Assembly: GCF_964213995.1 (NCBI RefSeq)
Contig: NW_027590136.1
Span: 1,302,001-1,366,000, forward strand
Direction: 5' to 3'
Length of the DNA: 64,000 nt
Source of the DNA: Mustelus asterias
Lineage: Eukaryota
The position numbers were made by a program, and so were the translations under genes. How positions within the stretch are numbered: the first letter of the stretch is position 1; each line of letters opens with the position of its first letter. Below are positions 3,958 to 54,858 of this stretch, piece after piece. The notes under the pieces are model-generated. The model had not been told where the DNA came from, searched no databases, and saw only the letters and a list, made by a program, of their open reading frames with translations.

Positions 3958-4803
3958 CTTCGACAGCCTCTCTATCTTCCCCTATACCTGGTATTGTCCT
4001 AGTACAATGATTTAAATGGTACCACAGTGTACTGCCTTCTACTTGTAAGGCTGTGGGTGAAACTCTGGTAACATCGAAAGGTCCTTCTCTTCTTGGTTCG
4101 TCCCAGCACCTTCGGAATTTCCTGATGTATACTCGATCTCCAGGTCTGATTCGGTGGTCAGCCGCTGGGCTTTCTTCCTCTTTGGCTTTTTCCTGTTCAA
4201 ATATAGTTCTATGTATAACAGTTAATTGCTGCATCTACTCTTTAGTGTCCTGATCTAAACATTCTAATGTAGGGCCTCCTGTTCCCCTAATCTTTGGCAC
4301 GGGCATTAGTCACCCCGTCATCATCTCATGTGGACTTAAGTGTGTTCTTCTATTCTCCTGACTTCGGCATTGCATTAAGGCTAGTGGTAGGGCATCAATC
4401 CAGTTTTTCCCTGTATCGCTACAGATCTTGCTTATTTTGGCCTTAAGAACTCCATTTGCCCTTTCCACCATTCCCTGTGACTGAGGATGGTAGACACAGC
4501 CAAATTTCTGTTTCACTCGGAGCACTGAGAGGGTTTCTCTCAGTACCCTTCCTACAAATGCAGATCCATTGTCTGAACTTAATTGGGCTGGTATGCCAAA
4601 TCGTGGAATGACTTCTTTTGTCAGGAAGTTGATCACTGTTCCTGACCCTTGATCTTTAGATGGTGTTGCTTCTATCCATCTGCTGAATCTGTCAATGATT
4701 ACTAACATATATCTTTTCCCTTTTATCTTTTTCACCATGTCCACATAATCCATACACAGGTGTTTAAATGGTCCCTCAGAAATGGGTATATGTCCTATTG
4801 GAT
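3704..4803 (-). pseudogene. pol: Retroviral integrase (3' end of pol) with in-frame stops
   Basis: ORFs 4310..4753 and 3704..4234: GPFKHLCMDYVDM, MLVIIDRFSRW, SDNGSAF, HPQSQGMVERANG, GPF motif (REGPFDV); stop at 4310-4312. Confidence 0.92.
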
Positions 4804-4805
4804 TG

Positions 4806-7800
4806 TTGTTCCACAGGAGCAGGCTGAGGGTAAGGGAGCTTGTGTGTGCACTAATTTATTTAATTATTTTTCAGTTAAATTCGTGAAAAAAATCGGAGGT
4901 TGTTTTTCTAAACAGGAAATAGGCCCAGCAGCAGCCTGGGAAGGTTTTGGAGGGTTTAAAAGTAGGCCGCACCTTTGAGCGGGCAGCGTCATTAGCGGGC
5001 AGTGGAGTGAGCAGGGGACAGAGTGAGAGCTATAAGGGCTTTGGCTCACAGGGCTTCGGCGAGGAAGGTTGTTTGTTTGTTTTTCTTCGGTTACACCCCC
5101 TTTTTGTTTTATCCCCAAAACTAAAAAGGACATGGCTGGTATGAGTGGGAGGCCAGTATACTGCATCCGGTGTGGGATGTGGGAGTTCCTGGAGACAACT
5201 TGCCTCCCGGAAGTCCATATCTGTGCCAGATGTGTGGAACTGCATCTCCTGAAGGATCATGTAAGGGAGCTGGAGCTGAGGCTCGATGAACTCAGTTTAG
5301 TTAGGGAAAACGAGAGAGTAATAGATAAAAGTTATAGTCAGGTAGTGACACCAGGGTCTCGGAAGGAAGACACGTGGGTCACAGTTAGGAGGGGTAAGAG
5401 TCAGAAGGGTGATGTGCCAGAAAGTACCCCAGTGGCAGTCTCCCATTAAAGAAAGGAATGGGCAACAGATGGGAGAAGGGAAGGGAGTGAGCAGTCTGTG
5501 GAGGGATCCCCTGTGGTTGTCCCCCTCCAAAATAGGTATCTTGTTTTGGATTCTGTGGAGGGGGATGACCCTCCAGGGGTAAACCACGAGGACCAGATCG
5601 CCTCCACGGAGACAGGCTCAGGGGTCCGGAAGGGAAAGAAGGGGTTTAGGAGAGCGATAGTTGTGGGGGACGCAATGGTTCGAGGCACGGACAGGCGCTT
5701 CTGTGGGACTGAACGAGAAGCCAGGATGGTAGTCTGCCTCCCTGGTGCCCGGGTACTGGATGTCTCCGAGAGGGTAGGAAGCATATTTAAAAAGGAAGGT
5801 AGTCAAACGGATGTGATTGTACACATTGGGGGAAATGATGTAGGTAGGAAGAGCAGGGGGGTCATACGAGAGAAATTCAGGGAGTTGGGTGCTAGGCTAA
5901 AAAGTAAGACCTCCAGGGTAGCAATATCTGGACTGCTCCCGGTGCCTAGTGCAAGTGAGGCTCGGAACAGGGAGATTCTACAGTTGAACGCGTGGCTAAA
6001 GGACTGGTGCAAGAGGGAGGGTTTTAAATTCATAGATAACTGGGAAATCTTCAAGTCAGGATGGCAACTGTACAGAAAGGATGGGTTACACCTTAACTGG
6101 AAGGGAGCAAATATCCTGGCTGGGAGTCTTGCTAGAGTGTTTCGGCAGGATATAAACTAGTGTGGCAGGGGGGTGGGGAACAAAACAGGTGGTCAGTAAA
6201 TACTGAGGCTGGGGTCGAGCTGGGGGCCAGGGCAAGGCTAGCTAAGAAGAGGAGCACTCTGGAGGAGGATGACCTGAGTGGGCCTGGAGGTCTGGAGTGC
6301 ATCTGCTTCAATGCGAGGAGTGTAACGGGTAAAACAGACGAACTTAGGGCCTTAATGCTTGTGCGGAATTTGGATGTGGTTGCGGTGACGGAAACTTGGT
6401 TAAAAGAAGGACAGGACTGGCAGCTGAATATTCCGGGGTATAAGTGTTTGAGGCGAGACAGAGGAGGGGCTAAAAAAGGTGGGGGAGTAGCGATATTAGT
6501 TAAGGAGCATATTACCGCGGTGCAGAGGGTAGACAACTTAGAGGGGTCATGTACTGAGTCGCTGTGGGTGGAACTCAGAAACAGGAAGGGTGCAGTCACT
6601 ATGCTGGGGGTGTACTACAGACCACCCAACAGCCCACGGGAAGTGGAGGAAAGGATATGTCAGGAGATTCTGGAAAGGTGCAGAAAACATAGGGTTGTTG
6701 TAGTGGGGGACTTTAATTTCCCTGGCACAGACTGGAAAGTGCTTAGAGCTGGGGGACCGGACGAGGAGGAATTTGTAAAATGCGTACTGGAAGGTTCTTT
6801 GGAACAGTATGTAGATAGCCCGACTAGAGAGGGGGCAATACTGGACCTAGTTCTGGGAAATGAGCCCGGTCAGGTCGTCAAAGTTTCGGTAGGGGAACAT
6901 GTGGCAAATAGTGACCACAACTCTGTTAACTTTAGGATAGTAATGGACAAGGATGAGTGCTGTCCTACGGGCAGGGTGCTAAATTGGGGGAAGGCTGACT
7001 ATAGCCGGATAAGGCAGGAATTGGTGGATGTTGATTGGGAGAGGATGTTCGAGGGTAAGTCCGCGTCTGGCATGTGAGAGTCTTTTAAGGAACTATTGAT
7101 AAGGCTGCAGGATAGGCATGTGCCTGTAAAAAGGAAAGATAGGAAAGGTAGGATTCGAGAGCCGTGGATAACCAGGGAAATTGAGGATCTGATTAAAATG
7201 AAAAGGGAGGCGTACGTTAAGTCCAGGCAACTGAAAACAGATGGAGCTCTGGAGGAATACAGAGAGAGTAGGAAAGATCTCAAACGGGGAGTTAGAAGCG
7301 CAAAAAGAGGTCACGAGATGTTCTTGGCAGGCAGGATTCAGGAGAATCCTAAGGCATTCTATTCATACGTTAGGAACAAAAGAGTTGTCAGGGAGAAAAT
7401 CGGACCTCTCAGGGACAAAGGAGGGGAATTATGCTTAGAACCCAAGGGAATAGGGGAGATCCTAAATGAATACTTTGCATCGGTATTCACGAAGGAGAGG
7501 GGCGTGTTAACCGGGAGTGTCTCGGAGGGAGGTGTTGACCCGTTAGAGAAAATCTCCATTACAAGAGAGGAAGTGTTAGGTTTTTTAGGGAACATTAAAA
7601 CTGACAAAGCCCCAGGGCCTGATGGCATCTATCCTCGACTGCTCAGGGAGACGAGAGGTGAAATTGCTGGGCCTCTGACGGAAATCTTTGTCGCTTCTTT
7701 GGACACGAGTGAGGTCCCTGAGGATTGGAGGATAGCGAATGTGGTCCCGTTGTTTAAGAAGGGTAGCAGGGATAACCCTGGAAATTATAGGCCGGTGAGC

Positions 7801-9327: not shown

Positions 9328-9604
9328 CGTTCCTGGTGCATTCGAGTACATGTGATCACTGGGATTGAGGGAGGTCATGCAGCCACTTACGGAAATGTCG
9401 TAACTCCCTGTACGAATATATCTGCAAACATCTCCTTAAATATCTAGGGTTCCAGCCACCTTCCATTCAAACCGGCAATTTATTTCGCACATTTACCACT
9501 TTCTGTGAATGAGAAGCATTTTTCGATATTATCCCAGAATTGCACTTTTTACTTCGAACCCGTGTCCCCGAGTCCCTGTCTACAATTAACGTTGGAGTAA
9601 AATT

Positions 9605-10259
9605 GAAAGTTGGGAATCAAGTAGATAAGGTTGTTAAGAAGGCATATGGTGTCTTGGCGTTTATTGGTAGGGGGATTGAATTTAGGAGTCGTAGCGTTAT
9701 GTTGCAACTGTACACAACTCTGGTGCGGCCGCACTTGGAGTACTGTGTGCAGTTCTGGTCCCCACATTACAGGAAGGATGTGGAGGCTTTGGAGAGGGTG
9801 CAGAGGAGGTTTACCAGGATGTTGCCTGGTATGGAGGGGAGATCCTATGAGGAGAGGCTGAGGGATTTGGGATTGTTTTCGCTGGAAAGGCGGCGGCTAA
9901 GAGGGGATCTTATTGAAACATATAAGATGATTAGAGGTTTAGATAGGGTGGATAGTGATAGCCTTTTTCCTCTGATGGAGAAATCCAGCACGAGGGGGCA
10001 TGGCTTTAAATTGAGGGGGGGTAGTTATAGAACCGATGTCAGGGGTAGGTTCTTTACCCAGAGGGTGGTGAGGGATTGGAATGCCCTGCCAGCATCAGTA
10101 GTAAATGCGCCTAGTTTGGGGGCGTTTAAGAGATCCGTAGATAGGTTCATGGACGAAAAGAAATTGGTTTAGGTTGGAGGGTCACAGTTTTTTTTTAACT
10201 GGTCGGTGCAACATCGTGGGCCGAAGGGCCTGTTCTGCGCTGTAATGTTCTATGTTCTA
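9605..10259 (+). mobile_element. 5'-truncated CR1 LINE 3' fragment
   Basis: LVRPHLEYCVQFWSP...FFTQRVV; tail gttctatgttct. Confidence 0.92.
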
Positions 10260-10639
10260 CATGATGTATCTAATATTCTTGTAGGTACCAATCAGACACT
10301 TGGGTGGGGAGCTGATTGAGAGAAACACATGACCCTCTGTAGCGAGTCACACCGGCCAGAATCTATCTTTTGGGTTGATTTATTTCACAGATAGAAATAG
10401 TTCAACACGAGATAGGAAGTGAGAACAGCGCAATCATTTCTTAAGCACAGACCCCAGGAGGTTAACTGCACCAGTTGTAGGAACTCACACAGTTTCCATT
10501 TGACCTGCCTGCCCTTCTCTCTGTGGTGGGGAGATTGATGCACCTATTGCCTGGCTGCCATCGGTTGGCTGAGCAGTTCTGTGGTTGGGGACCTGCACTT
10601 GCTTTGACAGAGGAGTTCATTGTCTGCAGAGTTACAGAC

Positions 10640-11240
10640 AACGGGAGCGACATTCGGAACTATCTCTTTCCTTCCTGCTAACTCTGCAACATCTCAGTAA
10701 GTATTTCCTCCCGAGTAATACTCCACTCTCCCCCTAACCGCACTAAACAATGTATTCTTGTTTGTAAAATGGTGACAATTACGACATTAGCAGATCCAAA
10801 ACATTTTACTTGTCCTTTTACTTCCAACATGTTGCGAATCTGATTTTTAAATTCTCGCATGTTTGACCTTTCACCATTGGAACATCTTTTTTGACAGATC
10901 TGAGTCATGGAAACGCTATCAGCAGCTGCTATTCTCCGGAGTTAAGACAGAAGGAGAAGCGGTGACTTTAACCTCCATCTATAAGCCTGCACCGAGCGAC
11001 TGCAATGATTTATACTGCTACCGGCAACATTCCTGAAACAAAGCCAGAGCTTATTCTGATCAAGTACGCGGGAGGTTCAGCGATGAGACAGGTTTTGCCA
11101 AATACTTATTTTGGGAAATTTAACAGCTTGACAAGAAAATTCACTTTCCCCATCTCTGGGCTGTAACTGAGAGGCACTGCAATTTATTTCTGCTCCCTGA
11201 GGCATTCAGTGATAAAAAGTTAAATTCACGGCAGGAAACT
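10640..11240 (+). pseudogene. TCR alpha/delta-type V segment pseudogene (leader relic, intron 10697-10897, V exon, degenerate RSS)
   Basis: GTAAGT donor at 10697, TTTTGACAG acceptor at 10897; broken frames SHGN..KTEGEAVTL..YRQH..KPELIL..FTFPISGL*LRGTAIYFCSLR; TTCAGTG...CAGGAAACT. Confidence 0.75.
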
Positions 11241-11295
11241 CTCGCCTCTTGGCAGGACAGAAGTTGCCAATGTACATTATAGCATCGGTGAAATA

Positions 11296-11502
11296 GAATC
11301 ATGGAATCCCTACAGTGCAGGCTATTCACAAAGGGGCAATTTAGCACGGCCAATCAACCTAACCCGCACATCTTTAGACTGTGGGAGGAAACCGGAGCAC
11401 TCGGAGGAAATCCACGCAGACGCGGGGAGAATGTGCAAACTTCACACAGACAGTGACCCAGGTCCCTGGAGTTGTGCGGCAGCAGTGCTAACCACTGTGC
11501 CA
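11296..11502 (-). mobile_element. HE1/V-SINE-like SINE fragment
   Basis: Reverse complement of the SINE at 31097-31435. Confidence 0.8.
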
Positions 11503-11757
11503 AGTGTGAAAAAAAAACGATTCATACAATCTGACAGTCGTTTGCGGTAATTTACTATTTCATCTCTATCTGTCTTTCGTCGGTGCAAGTTACCCCGAGT
11601 CGCCCACATATTCTGAATTAAATTTCATGAAATTTAAACGCATTCGCCGAAGGGGGCATGAGGAGGTTGGTTCAGTTGTTGGTTTGATTGACGTCATGGG
11701 TAAGAGATTGTGTTCTTTTCATCTTTAGTAAAAGTGAACGTTATTGTCAAAGCTGTA

Positions 11758-12992
11758 TTTTTTGAAGGGGTAACCAAGAAGGTAGATGAGGGCAGTGCAG
11801 TTGATGTTGTCTACATGGACTTTAGCAAGGCCTTTGACAAGGTACCGCATGGCAGATTGTTGCATAAGGTTAAATCTCACGGGATTCCGGGTGAGGTATC
11901 TAAATGGATACAAAATTGGCTTCTTGACAGAAGCCAGAGGGTGGTTGTAGAGAGTTGTTTTTCAAACTGGAGGCCTGTGACCAGCGGTGTGCCTCAAGGA
12001 TCAGTGCTGGGTCCACTGTTATTTGTCATTTATATTAATGATTTGGATGAGAATATAGGGGGCATGGTTACTAAGTTTGCAGATGACACTAAGATTGGTG
12101 GCATAGTGGACAGTGAAGAAAGCTATCTCCAATTGCAATGGGATCTTTATCAATTGGGCGAGTGGGCTGACGAATGGCAGATGGAGTTTAATTTAGACAA
12201 ATGCGAGGTGATGCATTTAGGTAGATTGAACCAGGGCAGGACTTACTCAGTTAATGGTAGGGCGTTGGGGAGAGTTACAGAACAAAGAGATCTTGGGGTA
12301 CATGTTCATAGCTCCTTGAAAGTGGAGTCACAGGTGGACAGAGTGGTGAAGAAGGCATTCGGCATGCTTGGTTCATTGGTCAGAACATTGAATACAGGAG
12401 TTGGAATGTCTTGTTGAAGTTGTACAAGACATTGGTCAGGCCACACTTGGAATACTGTGTGCAATTCTGGTCACCCTATCATAGAAAGGATAATATTAAA
12501 CTAGAAGAAGTGCAGAAAAGATTTACTAGGATGCTACCGGGACTTGATGGATTGAGATATAAGGAGAGGCTGGATAGACTGGGACTTTTTCCTCTGGAGC
12601 GTAGGAGGCTGAGGGGTGATCTTATAGAGGTCTATAAATTGAGGGGCACAGATCAGCTAGATAGTCAATATCTTTTCCCAAAGGTAGGGGATTCTAAAAC
12701 TAGAGGGCATAGTTTTAAGGTATGAGGGGAGAGATATAAAAGTGTTCAGAAGGGCAATTGTTTCACACAGAGGGTGGTAGGTGTCTGGAACAAGCTGCCA
12801 GAGGTAGTAGTAGAGGCGAGTACAATTTTGTCTTTTAAGAAGCATTTAGATAGTTACATGGGTACGATGGGTATAGAGGGATATGTGCCAAATGCGGCAA
12901 GTGGGTTTAGCTTAGGGTTTAAAAAAATGGGCGGCATGGACAATTTGGGTCGAAGGGCCTTTTTCCATGCTGCAAACCTCTGTGACTCTATG
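11758..12992 (+). mobile_element. CR1 LINE RT 3' fragment, frameshifted
   Basis: ORFs 11710, 12411 and 12774 with DFSKAFDKV, FADD; tail gactctatga. Confidence 0.92.
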
Positions 12993-13224
12993 ATTGCCCA
13001 TCACTAATTGCCTTTGTAAAAGTGATAGTGAGCTGCCGTCTTGGACTTCTGCAGTCCATGTGTTGTAAGTATGTACACAAAACTATTCGGGAGAGAGCTC
13101 CGCATTTCGACCGAGGGGCAGTGAAAGGAAAACTTTATAGTTCTAAGTTCTAGCCCTCAGCCTCTTGAGAGGTATTGGCGGGCTTTCTTATATATAGCGC
13201 CGACGTGGATGGATCAGGACTAGT

Positions 13225-15608
13225 TAAGAACATAAGAAATAGGAGCAGGAGTAGGCCATCTAACCCCTCGAGCCTGCCCCGCCATTCAATAAGATCATGG
13301 CTGATCTGACTTGGATCAGTACCACTTACCCGCCTGATCCCCATAACCCTTAATTCCCTTACCGATCAGGAATCCATCCATCCGCGCTTTAAACATATTC
13401 AGCGAGGTTGCCTCCACCACCACAGTGGGCAGAGAATTCCAGAGATTCACCACCCTCTGGGAGAAGAAGTTCCTCCTCAACTCTGTCTTAAACCGACCCC
13501 CCTTTATTTTGAGGCTGTGTCCTCTAGTTTTAACTTCCTTACTAAGTGGAAAGAATCTCTCCACCTCCACCCTATCCAGCCCCCGCATTATCTTATAAGT
13601 CTCCATAAGATCCCCCCTCGTCCTTCTAAACTCCAACGAGTACAAACCCAATCACCTCAGCCTCTCCTCATAATCCAAACCCCTCATCTCCGGTATCAAC
13701 CTGGTGAACCTTCTCTGCACTCCCTCCAATGCCAATATATCCTTCCTCATATAAGGGGACCAATACTGCACACAGTATTCCAGCTGCGGCCTCACCAATG
13801 CCCTGTACAGGTGCATCAAGATATCCCTGCTTTTATATTCTATCCCCCTCGTGATATAGGCCAACATCCCATTTGCCTTCTTGATCACCTGTTGTACCTG
13901 CAGACTGGGCTTTTGCGTCTCATGCACAAGGATCCCCAGGTCCCTTTGCACGGTAGCATGTTTTAATTTGTTTCCATTGAGATAGTAATCCCTTTTGTTA
14001 TTATTTCCTCCAAAGTGTATAACCTCGCATTTATCAACGTTATACTCCATTTGCCATATCCTCGCCCACTCACTCAGCCTGTCCAAATCTCTCTGCAGAT
14101 CTTCTCCGTCCTCCACACGATTCACTTTTCCACTTATCTTTGTGTCGTCTGCAAACTTCGTTACCCTACACTCCGTCCCCTCCTCCAGATTATCTATATA
14201 AATGGTAAATAGTTGCGGCCCGAGTACCGATCCCTGCGGCACGCCACTAGTTACCTTCCTCCAACCGGAAAAACACCCATTTATTCCGACTCTTTGCTTC
14301 CTATCGGATAGCCAGTCCCCAATCCACTTTAACACACTATCCCCAACTCCGTGTGCCCTAATCTTCTTCAGCAGCCTTTTATGGGGCACCTTATCAAACG
14401 CCTTTTGGAAATCCAAAAACACCGCATCCACCAGTTCTCTTCCATAACGTTATCCACCATAATCCTCCGGCGTAACATTAGCCGTTTTCCAATCAACCGG
14501 CACTACCCCAGAATGCAACGAGTTTTGATAAATAATCACTAACGCATCCACTATTACCTCTGACATTTCTTTCAATACCCTGGGATGCATTCCATCCGGA
14601 CCCGGGGACTTGTCCACCTTCAGTCCCATTAGTCTACCCAGCACTGTCTCTCTGGTAACATTCATTGTATTAAGTATTTCTCCTGCTGCCAACCCTCTAT
14701 CGTTAATATTTGGCAAACTATTTGTGTCCTCCACCGTGAAGACCGACACAAAAAACTTATTTAAAGACTCAGCCATATCCTCATTTCCCACTATTAACTC
14801 CCCCCTCTCGTCCTCCAAGGGTCCAACATTCACTCTAGCCACTCTATTCCTTTTTATATATTTATAAAAACTTTTACTATCATTTTTTATATTAATTGCT
14901 AGCCTAGCTTCATAGTCTATCCTTCCTTTCTTTATCGCTTTCTTAGTCTCTCTTTGTTGTTTCTTAAATTTTTCCCAATCACTTGTTTCTCCACTATTTT
15001 TGGCCACTCTGTACGCAGCTGTTTTTATTTTAATACTCTCCTTTATTTCCTTCGTTATCCACGGCTGGTTCTCCCTTTTCTTACAATCCTTGTTTTTTGC
15101 TGGAATATATTTTTGCTGAGAACTGAAAAGGATCTCCTTAAAAATCCTCCACTGTTCCTCAGCTATCCTACCTGCCAGCCTGCTCTCCCAGTCTACCTTA
15201 GCCAATTCATCCCTCATCCTATCATATTTCCCTCTGTTCAAACAGAGGACACTGGTTTGGGACCAAACTTTCTCCTCTTCCATCTGAATCAGGAATTCGA
15301 CCATATTGTGGTCACTAGACCCAAGAGGGTCCTTCACAATAAGATCCTTAATTCTACCTACCTCGTTACACAGTACCAGATCCAAAATAGCTCGTTCCCT
15401 CGTCGGTTCCGTAACATGCTGTTCAAGGAAACTATCTCGACAGCATTCTAAGAACTCTTCCTCCATTCCACCCTTACCGACTTGAGTCTGCCAGTCAATG
15501 TGCATGTTGAAGTCCCCCATGATTATTGCCGTTCCGTTTTTACACGCATCCCTTATCTGCTTGTTTATAGCCCTCCCTACCTCAACATTATTATTTGGGG
15601 GCCTATAT
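13225..15608 (-). mobile_element. CR1 LINE fragment (endonuclease end + RT) with internal deletion near 14430-14470
   Basis: ORFs 14450..15520, 13652..14431 and 13316..13651; tail ttcttatgttctt. Confidence 0.93.
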
Positions 15609-15619
15609 GCCTATATAGT

Positions 15620-15892
15620 TGTTGGTGATCTGGACATCGAGAAACCTTGAAGCTCTCGACCATTCCCACTTCATTCCCGTTGATGTCGATAGGGCATGTC
15701 CTCCACTACGCTTAATAAAGTCGATGACTATCTCTTTCCTTTAACTGACATTCAGGGAGAGACTACTGTCCTCGCACCAGTTCACCAGATTCACCATCTC
15801 TTTCCTGCCTCATCATTGTTTGAAATCCGACCCACCACGGTGGTGTCAACAGCAAACTTGAAAATTGAGTTGGAGGGGAATTTGGCCATACA
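15620..15892 (-). mobile_element. Degenerate Rex1/L2-like LINE RT fragment
   Basis: Minus strand reads SNSIFKFAVDTTVVGRISNNDE (degenerate KFADD motif). Confidence 0.6.
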
Positions 15893-16104
15893 TTCACTGT
15901 TTCATTCATTGTTTCCCTTCTCGGACTCCGCTGTACAGATTGAGCTGCTAAAGGACCAACGTTGGAATTATTCCACAGAGAGTACTCAGGTTAAGATGAA
16001 TAAAATCACCTTTCACTCCGCGTCGAGGGCAGGAATTGAAGATCCAAGGAGTTTGACATTATTGGTTGAATCGTTGGCATATCTGTTTTAGATGATTCAA
16101 TGTC

Positions 16105-16140
16105 AACTGATGACGCACGCGGCGAAGAACCAATCAGAAG
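16105..16140 (+). promoter_or_regulatory. Putative TCR V promoter: CRE-like TGACGCA and CCAAT box
   Basis: tgatgacgca and ccaatc about 100-130 bp upstream of the leader ATG. Confidence 0.5.
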
Positions 16141-16235
16141 AGTAGTGGGTGTTACTCACCCGCTTCTCAATTCTTGAGTGAAAACTTTCAGCCTCAGCCC
16201 ATTGCTGTTGACTGTGCTATGAGGTCTCTGCAAAC

Positions 16236-17011
16236 ATGTCTCCTGTTACCTTGCGTTTATTCCTCACAGCGGCTGCTCTGTTAACCGGTCAGTTCACAAA
16301 TTTCACAAAGCTGTGTTTCATATATTTACCACACATGGCATCATCACATCGGTAACAATGGATTGATCACGGATCAGTAAATTAACCCTATCCACTTTAC
16401 CGCCACACACCCTGTGACAAACAGTGGACTTGAAAACCTATGGACAGTTGTCAGTTTCCCCTTCAAATTGCAGGAAACGCTAGAGGGGAAATGAACCCGA
16501 TAGATGGCGCCAATTGTGCATTCCAGAAATCTTATTATTCGATTCAAATATAATCAAGTTATAATTCCTGAGATGTTGGAAATATGTTTCACTTTCGTTG
16601 CACCAAGTTATTTATCCGGCTGTTGCACAAGGCAAAATGCAGATTCTGTGTGATAAACGTAGTTGATTGACATCATTTAATTTGTTGTTACTCTGAATAC
16701 TTTAGGATATTGTGGAGGAGACTCTGTTACACAGACACCAGCTGCAGTCACAGTGAGTGAAGGACGTGACGGTCAGTTGTTCTGTAACTTTACAGCTACA
16801 ACAGCAACGACCCTAATCTATTCTGGCATCGTCAGTATCCCAGCGGGTCCATGGAGTTTCTGTATCAGAAAAGTAGGTACAGTGGGAACACAGAAAGATT
16901 CCGAGGGGACCGTTTCTCTGCAGAGTTTGACTTTATGAAGAGCACCATTCCGCTGAATGTGTCTAAGATAGAGCTGGCAGACTCCGGGGTGTATTACTGC
17001 GCACTGAGACC
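16236..17011 (+). pseudogene. TCR alpha/delta V segment: leader 16236-16287, intron, V exon 16706-17011; 1-nt frameshift near 16800
   Basis: MSPVTLRLFLTAAALLT-G; GT..AG phase-1 intron; GDSVTQTP..QLFCNF / LFWHRQYP..RFSAEF..LADSGVYYCALR. Confidence 0.92.
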
Positions 17012-17050
17012 CACAGAGACACAGAAATGTGCTGAACCTGTACAAAAACT
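17012..17050 (+). other. V(D)J recombination signal sequence, 23-bp spacer
   Basis: CACAGAG + 23 nt + ACAAAAACT immediately after YYCALR. Confidence 0.93.
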
Positions 17051-17203
17051 GTCAGAGCGTCACTCAACATTCAAATGTGGCAGTTGAGTGAATCATTACA
17101 GAATATTTATATGCCGACTTACCTGATGTCACACAATGTGTTTAATGTCACTGATACGATGAATGAATGAAACACAAGCCAATTTGGCCCCCACCATGGT
17201 CCT

Positions 17204-17400
17204 TCAAACAACATTATTATGGATAGCCTGTTTCAGGACGTTTGTTCTTGGGTAGTTATTGACTCGAGCAACTCTAGTGCTCTTCTTCAAAAAAGTGTCC
17301 TTGCGCACTATCACCTCCATCTGAGAAGGCAGTCGGTGCCCTCGATTTAACATCTCATTCGGCACCTTTGACAATTCACCATCCGCTGCGGAGTGCACGG
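17204..17400 (-). mobile_element. Deu-domain SINE (SacSINE1/AmnSINE-like) relic
   Basis: gctcttcttcaaaaaagtg..ctgagaaggcagtcggtgccctcgatttaacatctcat resembles the Deu-SINE core as recalled. Confidence 0.55.
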
Positions 17401-19014
17401 CCGCATCTGAATGGATCCTGCGACTGGAGTCTCCTCAAATCTTCTGCTTCATAGGCGGTAAAAATACCTTCTGGGATTGTTTTTCCTGAAAGAATCCGTG
17501 TGTCTTGTGGAGGAAAGAATCTCGGAATAGACTGAAGACTGAATCCTGGATATCCCGGGAGTCAGTGACTGTTCATCCACCCAATCATGGATTAAAATAA
17601 AGAAACGGAAATTTAAAGCAGCAACCTTTGCTGGTCCTGATGGAAGCGGCCGGATAACATGTTTAACCTTTGGAATCAACTATTACTCTTCAAGGGAAAT
17701 AAAAGTTTTTTTTACTGTTCTCGCGTCCTTGATGGATTCTGGACATCTGAAAGCACTTTACAAATTATGGAAGTTTATTTCCAGTGCAGCCGCTGTGTGT
17801 GCTATTTGAAACATTATTTATACAGAGGACACGGGGCATTGTGGATCACCGCCACAAAGAGTTGGCTCTCTGACGCTCATAGCGAAATGAAGAGATTTTC
17901 AAGTCCTTGTATTTTCTGGATATTTTGTGTTTGTGAACAATCGTAACCAAAATCTTACATCACAAGCATGGGAACCCGCACCACCTCTCTCTCACAGACA
18001 TACCCTCCCTCTCCCTCTTTCGCTGTCCTTCTCACTGATCAACGCTATTAATTAGAAACATTGCGCTGATTTTTTCCTTCAGTAAACCCTGTGACCATGC
18101 ACCATGAAATGCAATCGTTTGCAAAGTTCACTCTCTAAGTCTCCTTTGCCATAACATTGACAATTCATCGACAGGTGCTTGTCCTAAATATGCCACTGTT
18201 CACAGTGAAGTGTCACATCACAACGTTATTTCCTGTAATTTACAGCTGTCACCTGTGAGAGCGGTGAACTGCAGTTTTACGTACTTTCGGTCAAATAAAG
18301 GTTTTTGGAGAGCCACCTTGTGGAATGATCTGTGTAAACCCAATTATTCTCGAATATTGCAGCATACTAAAATATTACTATGCCAGATTATTACGGATGT
18401 TATTGTTTTGATTTTATTATTCCTGATGCTTATGCCTTTTCATTATTTCAATTTTGTTACGCTTACTATTTACTATTAATTCCGACATTATTTTCCTAGT
18501 TTGCTGCCAACCGAAGTAACTAAAATTGAAACAGTACCATTTAAATCTCGAACGAATGTATGAACAGGGGGTATATTTACATAATTTTTATGTGTTGGTA
18601 TTTTAAAATCTGGATTTCATTGGGATCTTGGCAGATTCATATCGCTAAAGCAAGCTTCATGATCCAGAGTGGCTGAGGCAATGCAATAAATCGGCAGTCT
18701 TTAAAATAAAAGTGGAATTAGCTCTCATGTATACGTTCATTGCATTGCAACAATAACAATATTTGCAAGAATAATGCGGCAGAATCTTGGAACAACATAT
18801 TTCAGGAACTTGAGAATTCGGTGGTTTTCCAGGAATTAGCCTCACATAGCCACCAGATGGAGGTGTCTCACCATGTTTGTTTGTTTACTGCAGCGGGTAC
18901 GGGAACAATAACGTTGTGGTTCTGCAGCTAGTCTAGTATTCCAGAGGGACAAGCGGCTCTCCGAAATCACCCTTTCCTTAACACGTGTTATGTTATATAA
19001 GACTATATAATTAT

Positions 19015-19560
19015 TTGCAGCTATATAAGACCCTGGTCAGACCACACTTGGAGCACTGTGCTCAGTTCAGGTCGCCTCATTACAGGAAGGATGTGAAAGC
19101 CATAGAAAGGGTGCAGAGGAGATTTACAAGGATGTTGCCTGGGTTGGGGAGCATGCCTTATGAGGATAGGTTGAGTGAGCTCGGCCTTTTCTCCTTGGAG
19201 AGACGAAGGATGAGGGGTGACCTGTTGAGAGGCATTGATCGAGTGGATAGTCAGAGGCTTTTTCCCAGGGCTGAAATGGTTGCCACTCGGGGACACAGGT
19301 TAAAAGTGCTGGGGAGTAGGTACAGAGGAGATGTCAGGGGTAAGTTTTTCACTCAGAGGGTGGTGGGTGCGTGGAATGGGCTGCCAGCAACGGTGGTGGA
19401 GGCGGATTCAATAGGATCTTTTAAGAGACTTTTAGATAAGTACATGGAACTTAGTAAGATAGAGGGTTATAGGTAAGCCTAGTAATCGCTAAGGTGGGGA
19501 CATGTTCGGCACCACTTTCCTGTATTGTGCTGTAGTTTTTCTATGTTTCTATGTTTCTAT
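19015..19560 (+). mobile_element. CR1 LINE 3' fragment
   Basis: ORF 18985..19476 LVRPHLEHC..FFTQRVV; tail tttctatg repeats. Confidence 0.9.
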
Positions 19561-23405: not shown

Positions 23406-23697
23406 TCTCCCACCTTCCGTTGACTTCAATGTGATGGAAACTGACTGTTGGAACCTGTCAACATTAGAAATATATTTACAAATGATGGAAGGGTTTCTTC
23501 CAGATGGATCTTTCTCTGTTCTTTCTACTGGACGTGTTAGAAAACAGACTTTCTCCTGTGAATATCCAGCTGGAATATTCGGCACTGACGTGTTTCCTTG
23601 TTCATCTTTTTCACTCGAACATAGAACATAGAACAGTACAGCACAGAACAGGCCCTTCGGCCCACGATGTTGTGCCGACCTTCATCTGAAACCAAGA

Positions 23698-26604
23698 TCA
23701 AGCTATCCCACTCCCTACCATCCTGGTGTGCTCCATGTGCCTATCCAATAACCGCTTAAATGTTCCTAAAGTGTCTGACTCCACTATCACTGCAGGCAGT
23801 CCATTCCACACCACAACCACTCTCTGCGTGAAGAACCTACCTCTGATATCCTTCCTATATCTCCCACCATGAACCCTATAGTTATGCCCCCTCGTAATAG
23901 CTCCATCCACCCGAGGAAATAGTCTTTGAACGTTCACTCGATCTATCCCCTTCATCATTTTATAAACCTCTATTGAGTCTCCCCTCAATCTCCTCCGCTC
24001 CAGAGAGAACAGCCCCAGCTCCCTCAACCTTTCCTCATAAGACCGACACTCCAAACCAGGCAGCATCCTGGTAAATCTCCTCTGCACTCTTTCCAGCGCT
24101 TCCACATCCTTCTTATAGTGAGGTGACCAGAACTGCACGCAATATTCCAAATGCGGTCTCACCAAGGTCCTGTACAGTTGCAGCATAACCCCACGGCTCT
24201 TAAACTCCAACCCCCTGTTAATAAAAGCAAACACACTATATGCCTTCTTCACAGCTCTATCCACTTGAGTGGCAACCTTTAGAGATCTGTGGATATGGAC
24301 CCCAAGATCTCTCTGTTCCTCCACAGTCTTCAGAACCCTACCTTTGACCCTGTAATCCACATTTAAATTAGTCCTACCAAAATTAATCACCTCACATTTA
24401 TCAGGGTTAAACTCCATTTGCCATTTTTCAGCCCAGCTTTGCATCCTATCTATGTCTCTTTGCAGCCTACAACACCCCTCCACCTCATCCACTACTCCAC
24501 CAATCTTGGTGTCATCAGCAAATTTACTGATCCACCCTTCAGCCCCCTCCTCTAAGTCATTAATAAAAATCACAAAGAGCAGAGGACCAAGCACCGATCC
24601 CTGCGGCACTCCACTAGCAACCTGCCTCCAGTCCGAAAATTTTCCATCCACCACCACCCTCTGTCTTCGATCAGACAGCCAGTTACCTATCCAATCGGCC
24701 AACTTTCCCTCTATCCCACACCTCCTTACTTTCATCATAAGCCGACCATGGGGGACCTTATCAAACGCCTTACTAAAATCCATGTATATGACATCAACCG
24801 CCCTACCTTCATCAACACACCTAGTTACCTCCTCAAAAAATTCTATCAAATTTGTGAGGCACGATTTGCCCTTCACAAATCCGTGCTGACTATCCCGGAT
24901 TAATCCGCATCTTTCTAAATGGTCGTAAATCCCATCCCTAAGGACCTTTTCCATCAATTTACCAACCACCGAAGTCAGACTAACCGGTCTATAATTACCA
25001 GGGTCATTTCTATTCCCTTTCTTAAACAGAGGAACAACATTTGCCACTCTCCAGTCCTCTGGCACCATCCCCGTGGACAGCGAGGACCCAAAGATCAAAG
25101 CCAAAGGCTCTGCAATCTCATCCCTCGCCTCCCAAAGAATCCTAGGATACATTTCATCAGGCCCAGGGGACTTATCGACCTTCAGTTTATTCAAAACTGC
25201 CAATACATTCTCCCTCCGAACATCTACTTCCTCCAGCCTATTAGCCTGTAACACCTTCTCTTCCTGAAAAACATGGCCCCTCTCCTTGGTGAACACTGAA
25301 GAAAAGTATTCATTCATCACCTCGCCTATCTCTACTGATTCCATACACAAGTTCCCACCACTGTCCTTGACCGGCCCTAACCTCACCCTGGTCATTCTTT
25401 TATTCCTCACATAAGAGTAAAAAGCCTTGGGGTTTTCCTTGATCCGACCCGCCAAGGACTTCTCATGTCCCCTCCTAGCTCTCCTCAGCCCCTTTTTCAG
25501 CTCGTTCCTTGCTAACTTGTAACCCTCAGTCGAGCCATCTGAACCTTGTTTCCTCATCCCTACATAAGCTTCCCTCTTCCTTTTCGCAAGACATTCCACC
25601 TCTTTTGTGAACCACGGTTCCCTCACTCGGCCATTTCCTCCCTGCCTGACAGGGACATACCTATCAAGGACACCCAGTATTTGTTCCTTGAAAAAGTTCC
25701 ACTTTTCATCAGTGCCTTTCCCTGACAGTTTCTGTTCCCATCTTATGCCCCCTAATTCTTGCCTAATCGCATCATAATTACCTCTCCCCCAATTGTAAGC
25801 CTTGCCCTGCCGTCCGGCCCTATCCCTCTCCATTGCAATAACAAAAGACACCGAATTGTGGTCACTGTCTCCAAGGTTCTCTCCCACAACCAAATCTAAC
25901 ACTTGGCCCGGTTCATTTCCCAGTACCAAATCCAATGTGGCCTCACCCCTTGTCGGCCTATCCACATATTGTGTCAGGAAACCCTCCTGCACACACTGCA
26001 CAAAAAGTGCCCCATCCAAACTATTTGACCTACAAAGGTTCCAATCAATATTTGGAAAGTTAAAGTCCCCCATGACAACTACCCTGTGACCCCCACACAT
26101 ATCCATAATCTGCTTAGCAATTTCTTCCTCCACATCTCTATTACTATTTGGGGGCCTATAGTAAACTCCTAGCAACGTGACCGCTCCTTTCCTGTTTCTA
26201 ACTGCAGCCCATATTACCTCAGTGTGCATATCCCCCTCAAAGTGCTTTTCCGCAGCCGTTAAACTATCCTTGATTAACAATGCTACTCCTCCACCTCTTT
26301 TACCAGCTTCCCTACACTTACTGAAACATCTATACCCCGGAACGTCCAACAACCATTCCTGTCCTTGTTCTACCCACGTCTCCGTAATGGCCACAACATC
26401 GTAGTCCCAAGTAGCAATCCACGCCCCAAGTTCATCCACCTTGTTCCGGATGCTCCTTGCATTGAAGTAGACACACTTCAACCCATCTTCCTGTCTACCG
26501 GTACCCACCCTTGACCTTGATACCTTCCCCAATACCTCACCACCCTCAACACTGACTTCTGGACTACAACTCCTTTTCCCACTCCCCTGACAAATTAGTT
26601 TAAA
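23698..26604 (-). CDS. CR1 ORF2p (endonuclease-reverse transcriptase); no AUG before the endonuclease motifs, start inferred at the frameshift site
   Basis: Uninterrupted: NARS, ITETW, GDFN, SDH, PGNYRPVSLTS, QGSVLGP, FADD. Confidence 0.9.
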   Translation of the reverse strand, partial: FKLICQGSGKRSCSPEVSVEGGEVLGKVSRSRVGTGRQEDGLKCVYFNARSIRNKVDELGAWIATWDYDVVAITETWVEQGQEWLLDVPGYRCFSKCREAGKRGGGVALLIKDSLTAAEKHFEGDMHTEVIWAAVRNRKGAVTLLGVYYRPPNSNRDVEEEIAKQIMDMCGGHRVVVMGDFNFPNIDWNLCRSNSLDGALFVQCVQEGFLTQYVDRPTRGEATLDLVLGNEPGQVLDLVVGENLGDSDHNSVSFVIAMERDRAGRQGKAYNWGRGNYDAIRQELGGIRWEQKLSGKGTDEKWNFFKEQILGVLDRYVPVRQGGNGRVREPWFTKEVECLAKRKREAYVGMRKQGSDGSTEGYKLARNELKKGLRRARRGHEKSLAGRIKENPKAFYSYVRNKRMTRVRLGPVKDSGGNLCMESVEIGEVMNEYFSSVFTKERGHVFQEEKVLQANRLEEVDVRRENVLAVLNKLKVDKSPGPDEMYPRILWEARDEIAEPLALIFGSSLSTGMVPEDWRVANVVPLFKKGNRNDPGNYRPVSLTSVVGKLMEKVLRDGIYDHLERCGLIRDSQHGFVKGKSCLTNLIEFFEEVTRCVDEGRAVDVIYMDFSKAFDKVPHGRLMMKVRRCGIEGKLADWIGNWLSDRRQRVVVDGKFSDWRQVASGVPQGSVLGPLLFVIFINDLEEGAEGWISKFADDTKIGGVVDEVEGCCRLQRDIDRMQSWAEKWQMEFNPDKCEVINFGRTNLNVDYRVKGRVLKTVEEQRDLGVHIHRSLKVATQVDRAVKKAYSVFAFINRGLEFKSRGVMLQLYRTLVRPHLEYCVQFWSPHYKKDVEALERVQRRFTRMLPGLECRSYEERLRELGLFSLERRRLRGDSIEVYKMMKGIDRVNVQRLFPRVDGAITRGHNYRVHGGRYRKDIRGRFFTQRVVVVWNGLPAVIVESDTLGTFKRLLDRHMEHTRMVGSGIA

Positions 26605-27521
26605 TCCCCCTGAAGAGCCGTAGCAAATTTCCCTCCCAGGATATTGGTGCCCCTCTGGTTCAGGTGCACCCCGTCCTGTTTGTAGAGGTCCCACCTTCCC
26701 CAGAACGTGTTCCAATTATCCACGTATCTGAAACCCTCCCTCCTGCACCATCCCTGCAACCACATGTTTAAGTGCACTCTCTCCCTGTTCCTCAACTCGC
26801 TATCACGTGGCACCGGTAGCGTACCAGAGATGACCACATGTTTTGTCTTTGCTCTCAGCTTCCAGCCGAGCTCCCGAAATTCCTGTTTTAAATCCCGGTC
26901 CCTTCTCTTACCTATGTCGTTGGTACCAATGTGTACCACGACTTGTGACTGTTTCCCCTCCCCCTTAAGAATCCGGAAAACACGGTCCGAGACGTCACGG
27001 ACCCTGGCATCCGGTAGGCAACAAACCATCCTCGAGTCTCTTTTGCTGCCACAGAACCTCCTATCTATCCCTCTAACTAACGAGTCCCCAATAACTATTG
27101 CCCTCCCGCTCTCCTCCTTACCCTCCTGAGCCACAGGGACGGACTCAGTGCCGGAGATCCTCTCACTGCGGCTCACCACTGGTATGTCGTCCCCCTCAAC
27201 CGTATCCAAAGCGGAATACTTATTGCTAAGGGGAACGACCACAGGGGATCCCTGCACCGACTGCTTCTTCCCAGCCCCTCTCACCGTCACCCATCTATTT
27301 TCATTCCGCGGAGTAACTGTATCCCTGAAGCTTCTGTCTATGGCCATCTCTGCATCCCTAATGATCCTAAGTTCCTCCAACTCCAGCTCCAGTTCCCTTA
27401 CACGGTTTTGGAGGAGCTGCAGATGGATGCACTTCTCACAGGTATAATCAGCAGGGACACTGACGTCGTCCCTCACCTCGAACATAGTGCAAGAGGAACA
27501 TTGCACTGCCTTCACACCCAT
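26595..27521 (-). CDS. CR1 ORF1p (zinc finger/leucine zipper/SGNH esterase)
   Basis: ATG start; CSSC..CEKC, RELELELEEL, GDSLVRG, HIGTND, DGVHLN. Confidence 0.92.
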   Translation of the reverse strand: MGVKAVQCSSCTMFEVRDDVSVPADYTCEKCIHLQLLQNRVRELELELEELRIIRDAEMAIDRSFRDTVTPRNENRWVTVRGAGKKQSVQGSPVVVPLSNKYSALDTVEGDDIPVVSRSERISGTESVPVAQEGKEESGRAIVIGDSLVRGIDRRFCGSKRDSRMVCCLPDARVRDVSDRVFRILKGEGKQSQVVVHIGTNDIGKRRDRDLKQEFRELGWKLRAKTKHVVISGTLPVPRDSELRNRERVHLNMWLQGWCRREGFRYVDNWNTFWGRWDLYKQDGVHLNQRGTNILGGKFATALQGDLN

Positions 27522-28187
27522 CCCCTCTAGATACCTTGCCAGTACCAGGTAGAAACAGCAAAAAATGAATTAACTCACCCCTGCTCGCCCAAGCCCTGTG
27601 AGCCAAAGCCCTACAGCTTTCACTCTGCCTCCTGCTCACTCTGCTGCCCGCTAATGAGGCTGAAAACTGCAAGTTAAGCACTTTTAAACCCTCCAAAAAC
27701 CTTCCCAGACTCCTGCTGGGCCCACTTCCTGTTTTAAAAAAAACCTCCGATTTTTTACACAAATTTAACTTAAAATAAATAAATAAATGTAGTGAACAAA
27801 CCAACTGCCTTCTCCTCAGCCTGGTCCTGTGGAATATTGAATATTTTGGTTTCAGACAGCAGATAATCAAACTCCCAGCAACAGACTGTCTATTACTGAC
27901 TTTATTAACAGCACTGCAATAATACAGATTAATTCCAAATTAGTTCCTTAACGAAGTAGTTAAATGATGGCATTCATTTGTATTTCAGAGTCAGTAATAT
28001 AGGAATGGTGTACTGGTCTTTAATTTCGATACAATTTTAATTCAATGTTCCTTCTTTCAATATCCTTTCCACCACTTCCCCGTTACCTGATTAATTTGAG
28101 ATACCAGCAGACACAATGTAAATCACAGTTGCTGTGGGCAATTGACGTGTTTGTGGCGTCAGTTTCTGAATATCAGGGCATCGGAGC

Positions 28188-29342: not shown

Positions 29343-32300
29343 TTAAAAATTAACACATTGTTTGAGTGGATATTTCACCAAATTCTTTAACTCGGCTCTG
29401 ATTTTACTCTGAGTCCCAGCATAAATCAATGGGTTAATGCAGGAACACAAAAACAGAAGCATATATCCAGTTTCCTCAAGATTAAATGTATTACTGAAAC
29501 CAGAACCTGAGAAATACGTACCTTTCGCAATTCGGACATAGATGATAGTTATAAAAAATAACAAGTATAACAGGATGAAATTTCCCGAAATGGTGAAGAG
29601 TAAAACAATGGACTTTTTCCGCTTCTCCACCTCTGGGTCACTCTGATTCTTTCCATTGTTCTGGGCCCGGAGTCTCCTGCGGGCTCTATTGGCCGCTAGA
29701 ATGTGTCTTACAGTAAGAGCATTCAGCAGCAAAATCAAAATGAATGGAAGGATAGGAGTGACAATACAACGCATCAAGTCATAAGCAGCCCAGAAAGGGG
29801 ATGTGTAAAATATTAACTTTACGTTGCCGAACCAGGGTACATCGTTAATTATGTACAGGGGTTCATAAATAAAGTACACAAAGACATTTTTTACACAGGC
29901 GAGTGTGGACACGATTCCAATGACCCACGTGGCCACATTTTCATTACAATATTTAACTTTGAGCTTCTGGCAACAAATAGCCACAAATCTATCAAACGTG
30001 AAAGCGACGGTTAACCAGACAGAGTTGTCCATGGCGGTAGAATGTAGGACTGTACGGACGCTGCAAACTGGTGTTACAGACAAAAAGCTCAATGGAAAAA
30101 AGATTCCCGCAATCCGGTTTAATATCACAGCAGATATTATGAGCAGGAGATCCACCACCGCTATGGACACAAGGTAATACGTGATACATCTGGAGAGACC
30201 ACAACTTTTTCTTGCGAGGACCAAAATCACTGCTGTGTTAGCTGTAATAGAGGGAAAGAGATTGTGAGAATTTGTGCATGACGAAGCATGGGAAGTGGAA
30301 CATTCATCGCAACAAAACAATCCATGATGTTGCATTCTGTGTGATGTATGCAAAATTTATACCTGATCTCAGGGACACTTGTTTCTGCTTAATAACAATA
30401 TCTTTATTAATAATAAGGAATGTTAACGAAAGTGACTGTATTTTTAATGAGAACTGAGAGAGGAATAATGCGAAATGGAAAGAATATCAAAACCAAAACT
30501 GAATAATTAAATGCACAATACAATGACATGTAAACAAGTAATTCAAAAATATTGGAGAAGATAAATTGGAAAATATCCAATAATAAGTGCGGAAGTTAAT
30601 ATGGTCACGGATTATATTTCAATGCGTATTAAATATGGCTCCATGAATGACAGCAAAATTATTTACTTTTGGAAACGTTTGCAGTGAATTTTCTCGAATA
30701 AATCCTCAAACAAAGGCAAATAAAAGGACAATTGTTAGCAGTTGTCGGAACTTGCAGATTTAGGAAGCAGCGCCAAGACTGAATTGTATCCCTGATAATC
30801 ATCTGAAATATCCGGTGAAATATAAAACGAGAGATTTGACGAGTTACTTTGCTTGACTCTTTGCAGAGAACAGAACAATTTGAAACGATGCTGGGTTCTG
30901 GGACAGAAAGGAATCAAGCAATCAGGAGCAGCAAATGTGAAATATGATTCCCGGGCTGAGCCAATGAGTGTTTGGCACTGGGAGCAGGCACAGATTGTTG
31001 TTAGTTCGGGATAAATAACAATCATTCATCAAAGGGTAACTGTTTGCATTATTTCAGCCTTCTACATATCCATCCCTGACGTTCGGTCAGAACAACGGGC
31101 GGCACGGTAGCACAGTGGTTAGCACTGCTGCTTCACAGCTCCAGGGTCCCGGGTTCGGTTCCCGGCTCGGGTCACTGTCTGTGTGGAGTTTGCACATTCT
31201 CCTCGTGTCTGCGTGGGTTTCCTCCGGGTGCTCCGGTTTCCTCCCACAGTCCAAAGATGTGCGGGTTAGGTTGTTTGGCCAGGTTAAAAATTGCCCCTTA
31301 GAGTCCTGGGATGCGTAGGTTAGAGGGATTAGTGGGTAAATATGTGGGGGTAGGGCCTGGGTGGGATTGTGGTCGGTGCAGACTCGATGGGCCGAATGGC
31401 CTCCTTCTGCACTGTAGGGTTTCTATTCTATTCTAACATCCCATCCATGCCCTTCTGTCCGCCCTGTCCCTGTAATCCCGCGCATTTACCATTGCTAATC
31501 CAACTAACGTACACATCCATGGGCATTAAGGTGCTTCTTTACGCGGCAAATCTACATAACTTGCGCAGTTTTGTATTCTGGGCACCTGGAGGAAACCCTC
31601 ACGCACACATGCGAAGAATATGCAAACTCCACTCAGACAACACATCTCTGGAATTGACCCCCTGTTTATTGTGCTATGAGGCAGCAGTGCCAACCACAGT
31701 GTACCTCTGCTGCTCAGTTTGAGAATTCGCCCAAAGGAATATTGTCAACGCCAACACAACAATCATAATAACTTTATAAACAAAAAACATAAATAACAAA
31801 ACATAAATAACAAAATTGAATTGTGTTTAACCATTATAACAGAACGGAAATGTAAATCAGAATGAATAACACAGTAAAACTTCGACTGTCAGATGTTACT
31901 GGTGAATGGGACAGGTTATATTACCAACTGATGAAATGGTACCTGTCACAGCACGGTTGTATAAGGTTAACACGGTGAAATCATGTATTTAATGTGAAGA
32001 AACTACGGTGGGGAGGACGTAAAATTATACCGTTAAATTTGTAGAATTTATGGAATGAACATCGAAAAATTATGTCAGGGAATAGTTAAATTATAATGCC
32101 AAATAAGGAATTGTCTGCTGAAGTAGAAACGGGACATTTTCGAGGAATACGTTAAAGGGCAGAAAACAGAACTTTGACGGGGAAACCTATATCCCTTTCA
32201 ATGAGAGGAGGAACTTGGTGCTGTTGAGATAAGGTGGTAATAAAGTGGAGGAATTAATGCAACCAAACAATATTTTTCGCCAGCAACTAAATAACTGAGA

Positions 32301-54300: not shown

Positions 54301-54660
54301 AAGCATTTGAGGCCGACGTCAAGCAAAGATAACATGAATCGAGACTCGGATAATGTTCAGCAACAAACTGAATTAATTCAGATTTCTCTCACCCGACATG
54401 AAACATCTTAATGTTTTCTTCTGCCCGGTTTCGGACCCGGGTCCTTTACAAGCACTGCACTACAGAAACAAATGACAGCACATCGCCCCCAATCGGCCTG
54501 ACTACAATGCTCAACTGCACTGTGTTCGTGCTGGTCGGCATGGTTAGATTCAGAACCCCCCATGCCACTTAATACAAGAAAACACTCGTTACTTTCAACC
54601 TGATGTATCAACTCATCTTGTAATTCCAAATTAAAAAGCGTTCCTCCAGTAAATGCCCAA
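51400..54660 (-). repeat. Tandem array of five tRNA-Val pseudogene units (~51402-51470, 51680-51752, 52984-53055, 54009-54081, 54415-54469)
   Basis: Repeated tgataaccactacactacagaaac plus shared flank cctgtcagtgcgtcaaaa..catttgaggccga. Confidence 0.8.
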
Positions 54661-54663
54661 GGG

Positions 54664-54858
54664 AACTCAATGAGTTAAAGCTCAATTGTTTTAGCTCAAA
54701 GTTCAGAAAATGTTGAGTAATATCCGGCCCCAATGGTGAGAGGTTCATTCCTATCCAGCAGGAGACACCCAATCAGCTCACAGCTCCTTTATCCTATATT
54801 TCACCCAATCAGCTCCGAGTGTCTTCATTCTTCAATTCATGACGTCAGAGAGAGGAGC
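54664..54858 (-). promoter_or_regulatory. Orphan paralog of the TCR V promoter at 20787-20982
   Basis: Colinear: tgagttaaagctc, gttcagaaaatgttgag.aatatccggcc, ccaatcagctc twice, catgacgtcaga. Confidence 0.7.

Follow-up and report, generated by a model that had tools for sequence, protein, structure and literature searches.

The DNA analysed is a 64,000-nucleotide stretch of the Mustelus asterias genome (RefSeq assembly GCF_964213995.1, contig NW_027590136.1, positions 1,302,001 to 1,366,000), hereafter called the window and numbered from its first letter. It carries an intact CR1 long interspersed nuclear element (LINE) on the minus strand, in which open reading frame 1 (ORF1) ends on the slippery heptamer U_UUA_AAC and ORF2 lies in the -1 frame. 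Comparison with relatives makes it likely that CR1 LINEs make the ORF2 protein (ORF2p) in the manner of retroviruses, by -1 programmed ribosomal frameshifting at this heptamer, which would give a 1,274-aa ORF1-ORF2 fusion. Judged from sequence, the signal at the CR1 junction is real, deeply conserved and of a recoding type. The features concerned are the following.

23617..27840, minus strand: whole intact CR1, about 4.2 kb; 5' end placed from identity with sister copies; tail of short TTCTATG-type tandem repeats
26595..27521, minus strand: ORF1, ATG at 27521, 308 aa; N-terminal Cys motif, C-terminal SGNH esterase; ends L-N-stop
26598..26604, minus strand: slippery heptamer T_TTA_AAC, in X_XXY_YYZ phase with the last ORF1 codons (xxT TTA AAC)
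26595..26597, minus strand: ORF1 stop, adjoining the heptamer; a TAA in this copy, with TAG or TGA used by other families
26578..26587, minus strand: conserved G motif, G4-5 and G3 with two free bases between them, its start 11 nt past the heptamer; candidate stimulator of the frameshift
26470..26598, minus strand: linker in the -1 frame, about 43 codons without AUG, from the shift site to the endonuclease
23698..26598, minus strand: ORF2, 966 codons in the -1 frame, stop-free from the heptamer down to 23698
about 26469-25858, minus strand: APE endonuclease of ORF2, residues 46-249 counted from the heptamer (Pfam)
about 25017-24325, minus strand: reverse transcriptase (RT) of ORF2, residues 530-760 counted from the heptamer (Pfam)
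6151..6160, plus strand: junction in a diverged, dead CR1 copy, TATAAAC TAG (in its family TTTAAAC TAG), followed by the G motif

The ORF1-ORF2 junction and its conservation

An earlier note on this DNA, made from the letters alone, had placed the end of ORF1 at GAT TTA AAC TAA with the heptamer in phase at 26604-26598, and had described ORF2 as a -1-frame ORF whose first AUG (26229) comes after the NARS and ETW motifs, within the endonuclease. Both descriptions were borne out by the minus-strand sequence: NARS stands at codon 45-46 of the ORF2 frame and the first in-frame AUG is codon 125. If frameshifting operates, most ribosomes would terminate at the end of ORF1, giving ORF1p, and a minority would slip in tandem from UUA/AAC to UUU/AAA and read L-N-L-I-C into the linker. 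The peptide FKLICQG given in the note is a conceptual translation only, and tandem slippage would yield L-N-L-I-C in its place. The predicted product is the 1,274-aa esterase-endonuclease-RT fusion, made beside abundant free ORF1p.

The esterase domain of ORF1 was recognized by Pfam PF13472 (E 3e-12). Homologues of ORF1 are 305-315 aa long and end in LN; those named came from sharks and rays, and others were found in snake, turtles and bird. One protein labelled Pseudomonas (P0008) is a shark-type ORF1. The family is young and abundant, with 1,438 first-look candidates in the 3.68-Gb genome, the best 40 of which are about 100% identical. It has the esterase ORF1, the APE and RT domains in ORF2, a tandem-repeat 3' tail without poly(A) and many 5'-truncated copies. 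The SGNH esterase ORF1, the APE+RT ORF2 and the tandem-repeat tail are shared with the vertebrate CR1 elements of PMC13343379 and PMC3905857. By its domains, its tail and the likeness of its junction to rows labelled CR1, the intact element is an ordinary vertebrate CR1. At least eight more CR1-type ORF2 fragments, mostly 5'-truncated and on both strands, lie at 9513-19476 and 37832-48197 of the window.

Counting both strands, the window contains TTTAAAC on its own 25 times, and a single site therefore means little. Loci were drawn from protein queries and from the 14,662 genome matches of an esterase-motif pattern that is blind to the junction, which brought in many diverged families. Of 209 loci, 171 were counted. 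The 38 excluded comprise 14 in which the ORF1 C-terminus gave no hit and 24 in which indels or contig ends had shifted the stop. TTTAAAC stood directly before the ORF1 stop in 161/171 copies (28 clusters). Since about 30 of the copies counted were obtained with a DNA query that itself includes the heptamer, and at least two entered the count twice, it is the family-level test that carries weight. For that test 24 representatives, taking in amniote-type relatives as well as families of the shark-like genome, were hand-picked from the 28 clusters; a decayed exception, the singleton L120 (TAAAGTT), was left out.

Among the representatives, the base before TTA was T in 24/24, though the codon it closes encodes seven different amino acids. 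The Leu codon was TTA in 23/23 (usage elsewhere in these ORF1s 13%) and the Asn codon AAC in 23/24 (usage elsewhere 42%). In 12 further columns where the amino acid is conserved at 80% or more, among them the catalytic D-G-x-H-L stretch, the share of the top codon was only 0.36-0.80. The base 5' of the heptamer varies (G, C or A), as does the stop (TAA, TAG or TGA), so the frozen block is exactly the heptamer. The palindrome GTTTAAAC was considered as the constraint and rejected on the same variation of the preceding base. Genome-wide, a pattern of heptamer, stop and G motif had 22,090 matches against 7 for a reversed control, and 4/4 sampled matches were CR1 junctions. The first heptamer position was T in these 22,090 matches, and A, C or G in 364 that were scattered across families. 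Such nucleotide conservation, beyond what the protein needs, is what a -1 programmed frameshift site would show. Conservation of the heptamer is not due to chance. In-phase conservation across CR1 subfamilies had been named beforehand as the point on which the proposal could fail, and it held in lineages whose ORF1s are about 30% identical. The note's wider proposal, a frameshift that joins esterase, endonuclease and RT, is likewise supported as an inference, the heptamer, its phase and the -1 relation of ORF2 being kept across lineages.

The plus-strand CR1 had been described as having the same geometry with one mismatch. Its GAT ATA AAC TAG at 6149-6160 and first AUG at 6355 were confirmed, but the mismatch is private to this copy: TTA was found in 29/30 family loci, which were fetched using the copy itself as query. 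The copy also carries in-frame stops in ORF1 and ORF2. The ATA is therefore taken as decay and not as a true exception.

Outside the genome, TTTAAAC TAG was found in the same phase in 7/24 metagenome loci of amniote type (swallow-like ORF1, 28-34% ORF1 identity). One further locus of this set had the heptamer in a decayed context, and some others stop short of the junction. ORF1 proteins named from snake, turtles and swallow have a C-terminal LN. In the supplement of PMC13343379, the heptamer followed by a stop was present at the ORF1 end of CR1-labelled rows for AllMis, CroPor, PogVit, AquCat, AmiCal, LatCha, CalMil, HypSab, PriPec, ScyCan and SquAca, codes which we read as crocodilians, lizard, frog, bowfin, coelacanth, chimaera, rays and sharks. 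The motif search covered the first 400 characters per cell and records presence only. The G run is visible in most of these rows; some are too gapped for spacing to be taken, and a few matches fell in unrelated chance places.

The ORF1 profile is matched to its end by 148 proteins, of which 87 end in LN, 9 in GN and 2 in KN. In a set of 69 mostly distant ORF1 relatives, the ends of which were not fitted to the profile end, 29/69 finish in LN, GN or KN against 1% of internal dipeptides; the 69 are kin and not independent. These are the pairs encoded by U_UUA_AAC, G_GGA_AAC and A_AAA_AAC, three of the four most shift-prone heptamers in PMC5009743. Distant esterase ORF1s ending in GN or KN are P0104, P0106, P0110, P0116-P0118, P0120, P0150, P0166 and P0149. 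Their DNA was sought in viral contigs (one unrelated match or none), in plasmids (none) and in prokaryote genomes, where 21 loci were obtained and a LINE ORF2 was found in L169 only. L169 (2440-5631) is a CR1-like LINE with an esterase ORF1 on a bacterial metagenome-assembled contig, probably through host contamination.

The G motif downstream of the heptamer

After the stop come seven free bases and then G at +11 to +15 in 25, 25, 24, 23 and 22 of 25 clusters, followed by G at +18 to +20 in 22, 24 and 21 of 25 (clusters L107 and L120 are omitted from this position table). The G at +11, kept in 25/25, falls in the wobble position of a codon whose amino acid varies among six. The two Gly codons of the motif are GGG in 19/20 and 18/20 representatives, GGG usage in ORF2 being about 35%. 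The spacing is fixed, with 22,090 genome matches against 43 for a spacer one codon longer. A protein linker that varies so much in length should tolerate an extra codon, yet the spacing is kept. The length of the G run was changed in 7/28 copies of one family; on this basis the run is costly to the element.

The earlier note had seen no clear pseudoknot and only a G-rich tract. No pseudoknot was found, but the tract is a second conserved, position-fixed element and not mere composition. The 3' flank was folded, as the note had proposed, and no conserved stable stem was seen; the folding was nested, and pseudoknots were probed through duplex scans only. The stem-loop or pseudoknot 5-9 nt downstream of canonical structure-stimulated sites was thus not found. 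What the junction has is a conserved motif without structure, placed at constant spacing about 11 nt to the 3' side of the shift site, which at the level of sequence is the arterivirus arrangement. If frameshifting occurs, the ribosome may be made to pause by this unstructured G4-5-N2-G3 motif: a protein bound to it, 10 nt past the heptamer, would stand as a roadblock at the mRNA entry channel. This reading has somewhat less than an even chance. The pause could otherwise be due to a G-quadruplex, bimolecular or two-tier, or to nothing but the stop, and the adjacent ORF1 stop codon would perhaps help it.

Several candidates for a structural partner were rejected. Pairing with the 3' tail of the element, of the luteovirus type, gave no common partner position: the best partners scatter and the 3' ends are G-rich. 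Recurrent upstream pairing matches were C-rich codons of conserved Pro-containing motifs. The best ViennaRNA fold includes a quadruplex in 9/20 elements, so a two-tier quadruplex may be present. Downstream of the G motif, some 25-50 nt from the heptamer, a small inverted repeat was seen in four amniote-type elements (L064, L067, L068 and L070). It was not significant against shuffles and has no counterpart in shark-type families.

The heptamer and the G motif might instead be an RNA or DNA element with another role, such as ORF1p or ORF2p binding, packaging or dimerisation, with ORF2 expressed by a route that leaves no trace. The G motif, being without visible structure, could serve as a protein site or as the half-site of a bimolecular quadruplex. 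Such an element would need neither the ORF1 codon phase, nor a fixed -1 relation to ORF2, nor an open linker that changes length by whole codons, and it would not need the apparent switching among LN, GN and KN ends. We consider it improbable.

Entry into ORF2 and the routes weighed

The endonuclease motif was in the -1 frame in 127/144 copies where it was found (it was not found in 27/171) and in 20/23 clusters. Linker length ranges from 39 to 71 codons across family representatives and changes in whole codons; in the family of the intact element the linker is open in 44/44 copies. Linker stops per representative were none in the -1 frame (representatives were chosen as open) and 1-7 and 3-9 in the other two frames. 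Upstream of the heptamer the -1 frame is closed within 1-5 codons in 16/20 representatives, and entry into the ORF2 frame therefore lies at or after the heptamer site. The AUG at 26229 is replaced in sister copies and in contigs of all four sequencing runs compared. The heptamer does not appear among the 40 listed of 365 places where contigs differ, an absence that is given no weight. As at a frameshift site, the downstream ORF is open in -1 from the site and has no conserved start of its own.

Several observations weigh against frameshifting. An AUG is present somewhere in 13/20 family linkers, and in 3/4 amniote-type linkers it is at codon 4, 2 nt after the stop. The lineages share ancestry, and their counts are not independent. 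For relatives ending in GN or KN, the presence of a shift-prone heptamer is deduced at the protein level only. The invertebrate-type relative L169 has no in-phase heptamer; it has a long ORF1/ORF2 overlap and an in-frame AUG, so the signal is not universal among esterase LINEs. No conserved local structure was detected, fold z-scores being mostly within +/-2 in 21 elements and -0.03 for the intact copy. Duplex scans of 21 elements, several of them incomplete, gave no shared long-range partner upstream, downstream or at the tail. An intramolecular three-tier G-quadruplex was rejected, the four-tract (G3) pattern occurring in only 1/20. A heptamer without a stimulator shifts weakly.

The linker AUGs bear most directly on termination-reinitiation, in which ribosomes would stop at the ORF1 end and resume translation in the -1 frame from an AUG or near-cognate codon, the conserved letters being a reinitiation signal. 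This route is used by SART1, which has a stop-start (PMC3708506, PMC10275272), and the AUG 2 nt after the stop in several amniote-type elements would suit it. Where an AUG is present, its position is codon 3, 4, 17, 18, 20, 22 or 25. Linkers without AUG numbered 7/20, against 7.5 expected from Met frequency, so that AUG occurs at chance frequency. The motif finder misplaced the endonuclease start in two rows of one family, and both were counted as AUG-containing. The AUG-less linker of the earlier note is true of the window's two young families, which have no AUG before the endonuclease in 44 and 30 open copies, but it is not universal. Among near-cognate codons none is shared by position, and one 62-codon linker lacks ATG, CTG, GTG, TTG and ACG altogether. 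UGGGA is the core of the calicivirus termination upstream ribosomal binding site (TURBS). It was found 25-100 nt upstream in 12/21 representatives against 3/21 and 2/21 in control windows; it lies at six different distances, mostly over Trp codons, and is absent from 5/6 amniote-type elements. A conserved start codon beside the ORF1 stop, as in SART1 or with TURBS, was not found. Reinitiation also leaves unexplained why the frozen letters are exactly an in-phase slippery heptamer. Judged on the sequences, no start codon is under visible selection, whereas the heptamer is, and we regard reinitiation as unlikely.

Splicing could also express ORF2, if the junction held an acceptor (with branch-like CTAA and with CAG/G at +9 to +12) to which an upstream AUG were joined. 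CAG or AAG precedes the G run in 11/20 representatives and CTAA or CTAG overlaps the stop. The AG at the acceptor place is missing in 8/20, and a branch-to-AG distance of about 10 nt is short, which counts against splicing. A contig from a sequencing run guessed to be RNA covers 26000-27612 unspliced, and no splice-ended joint was seen at the junction in the contigs, the only material compared. This route appears very improbable.

Related systems and neighbouring features

In mammalian L1, ORF2 translation depends on that of ORF1 and ORF2p is a separate protein. In SART1 and L1 a separate ORF2p is begun at the stop or beyond it; CR1 has no conserved start and a conserved slippery site. SART1 resembles CR1 in its bicistronic LINE RNA, and its ORF2 depends on ORF1 translation through a UAAUG stop-start (PMC3708506, PMC10275272). 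A -1 frameshift is stated to be required for ORF2 of the Dictyostelium elements TRE5-A and TRE3-A in a figure legend of PMC5911963. These are APE-type LINEs like CR1; unlike CR1 they belong to the L1 clade, are amoebal and have a different ORF1, and the frameshift there is a review statement. HeT-A gag frameshifting appears in PMC5009743. Frameshifting in a non-LTR element therefore has precedent (TRE5-A and TRE3-A, PMC5911963; HeT-A, PMC5009743).

The heptamer matches the U_UUA_AAC sites of the infectious bronchitis virus (IBV) coronavirus type (PMC5009743), where an identical in-phase heptamer joins a structural-type ORF to a -1 polymerase ORF. In contrast to IBV-type sites, CR1 has no 3' stem-loop or pseudoknot 5-9 nt downstream; its zero-frame stop is immediate and an unstructured G motif lies 11 nt downstream. 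[quoted passage not shown] This arterivirus resembles CR1 in having a short motif at that distance in place of RNA structure; its motif is C-rich with known binders, whereas that of CR1 is G-rich and the likeness is known from sequence alone. PRRSV is the nearest precedent found for the geometry of the CR1 G motif.

More tentatively, and at well under even chances, the RT of CR1, the dominant retrotransposon in most jawed vertebrates, may have been made as a Gag-Pol-like fusion since before the split of sharks and bony vertebrates, with the frameshift switched on, in place of RNA structure, by a protein (a host G-run binder or ORF1p) or by a bimolecular G-quadruplex on the G motif. If so, the junction would form a G-rich counterpart, in cells, of the trans-activated site of arteriviruses, and host or element could gate ORF2 output. 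According to PMC5009743 (2016), synthetic G-quadruplexes stimulate shifting; natural cases were then unknown and its protein-stimulated example was viral. For that reason a CR1 stimulator would be an unusual one, and it is from this part of the signal that a surprise is most likely.

A description of CR1 frameshifting was not found in the open literature, as covered by listings and abstracts; the 1997 chicken and turtle CR1 papers and Repbase reports are outside that scope, and a passing mention is possible. Frameshift terms in the accessible text of PMC13343379, PMC11835228, PMC4255032, PMC3708506, PMC10275272 and PMC3905857 led to no CR1 frameshift. The consensus rows of PMC13343379 show the same junction, but its main text does not contain 'frameshift', 'start codon', 'overlap' or 'translation', and the signal is undescribed there. 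The translation of ORF2 in two-ORF LINEs is called 'not clear' in PMC3708506. The worked cases are reinitiation, and a 30-nt signal across jawed-vertebrate CR1s makes the question directly testable. If frameshifting is confirmed, CR1 ORF2p would bear the ORF1 coiled coil and esterase at its N-terminus and would therefore assemble together with ORF1p in a fixed proportion, as Gag-Pol does. Any annotation in which ORF2 begins with the first AUG would then cut into the endonuclease.

Other features were noted in the window. A single-exon rhodopsin-family seven-transmembrane receptor frame of 337 aa (29343-30356, minus strand, E 1e-17) lies about 1.5 kb upstream of the intact CR1 on the same strand. 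At 1336-4855 (minus strand) is a provirus-like remnant of several broken frames, with an integrase core (rve, E 2e-18, 4310-4855) and then an envelope-like TLV_coat match (E 9e-10, 2064-2885). A GIY-YIG domain frame at 592-1149 (minus strand, E 7e-5) probably represents the end of a Penelope-like element. Three tRNA-like calls (Val, Leu and Ile) stand among repeated blocks at 51678-60087 (minus strand) and may be tRNA genes or tRNA-derived repeats.

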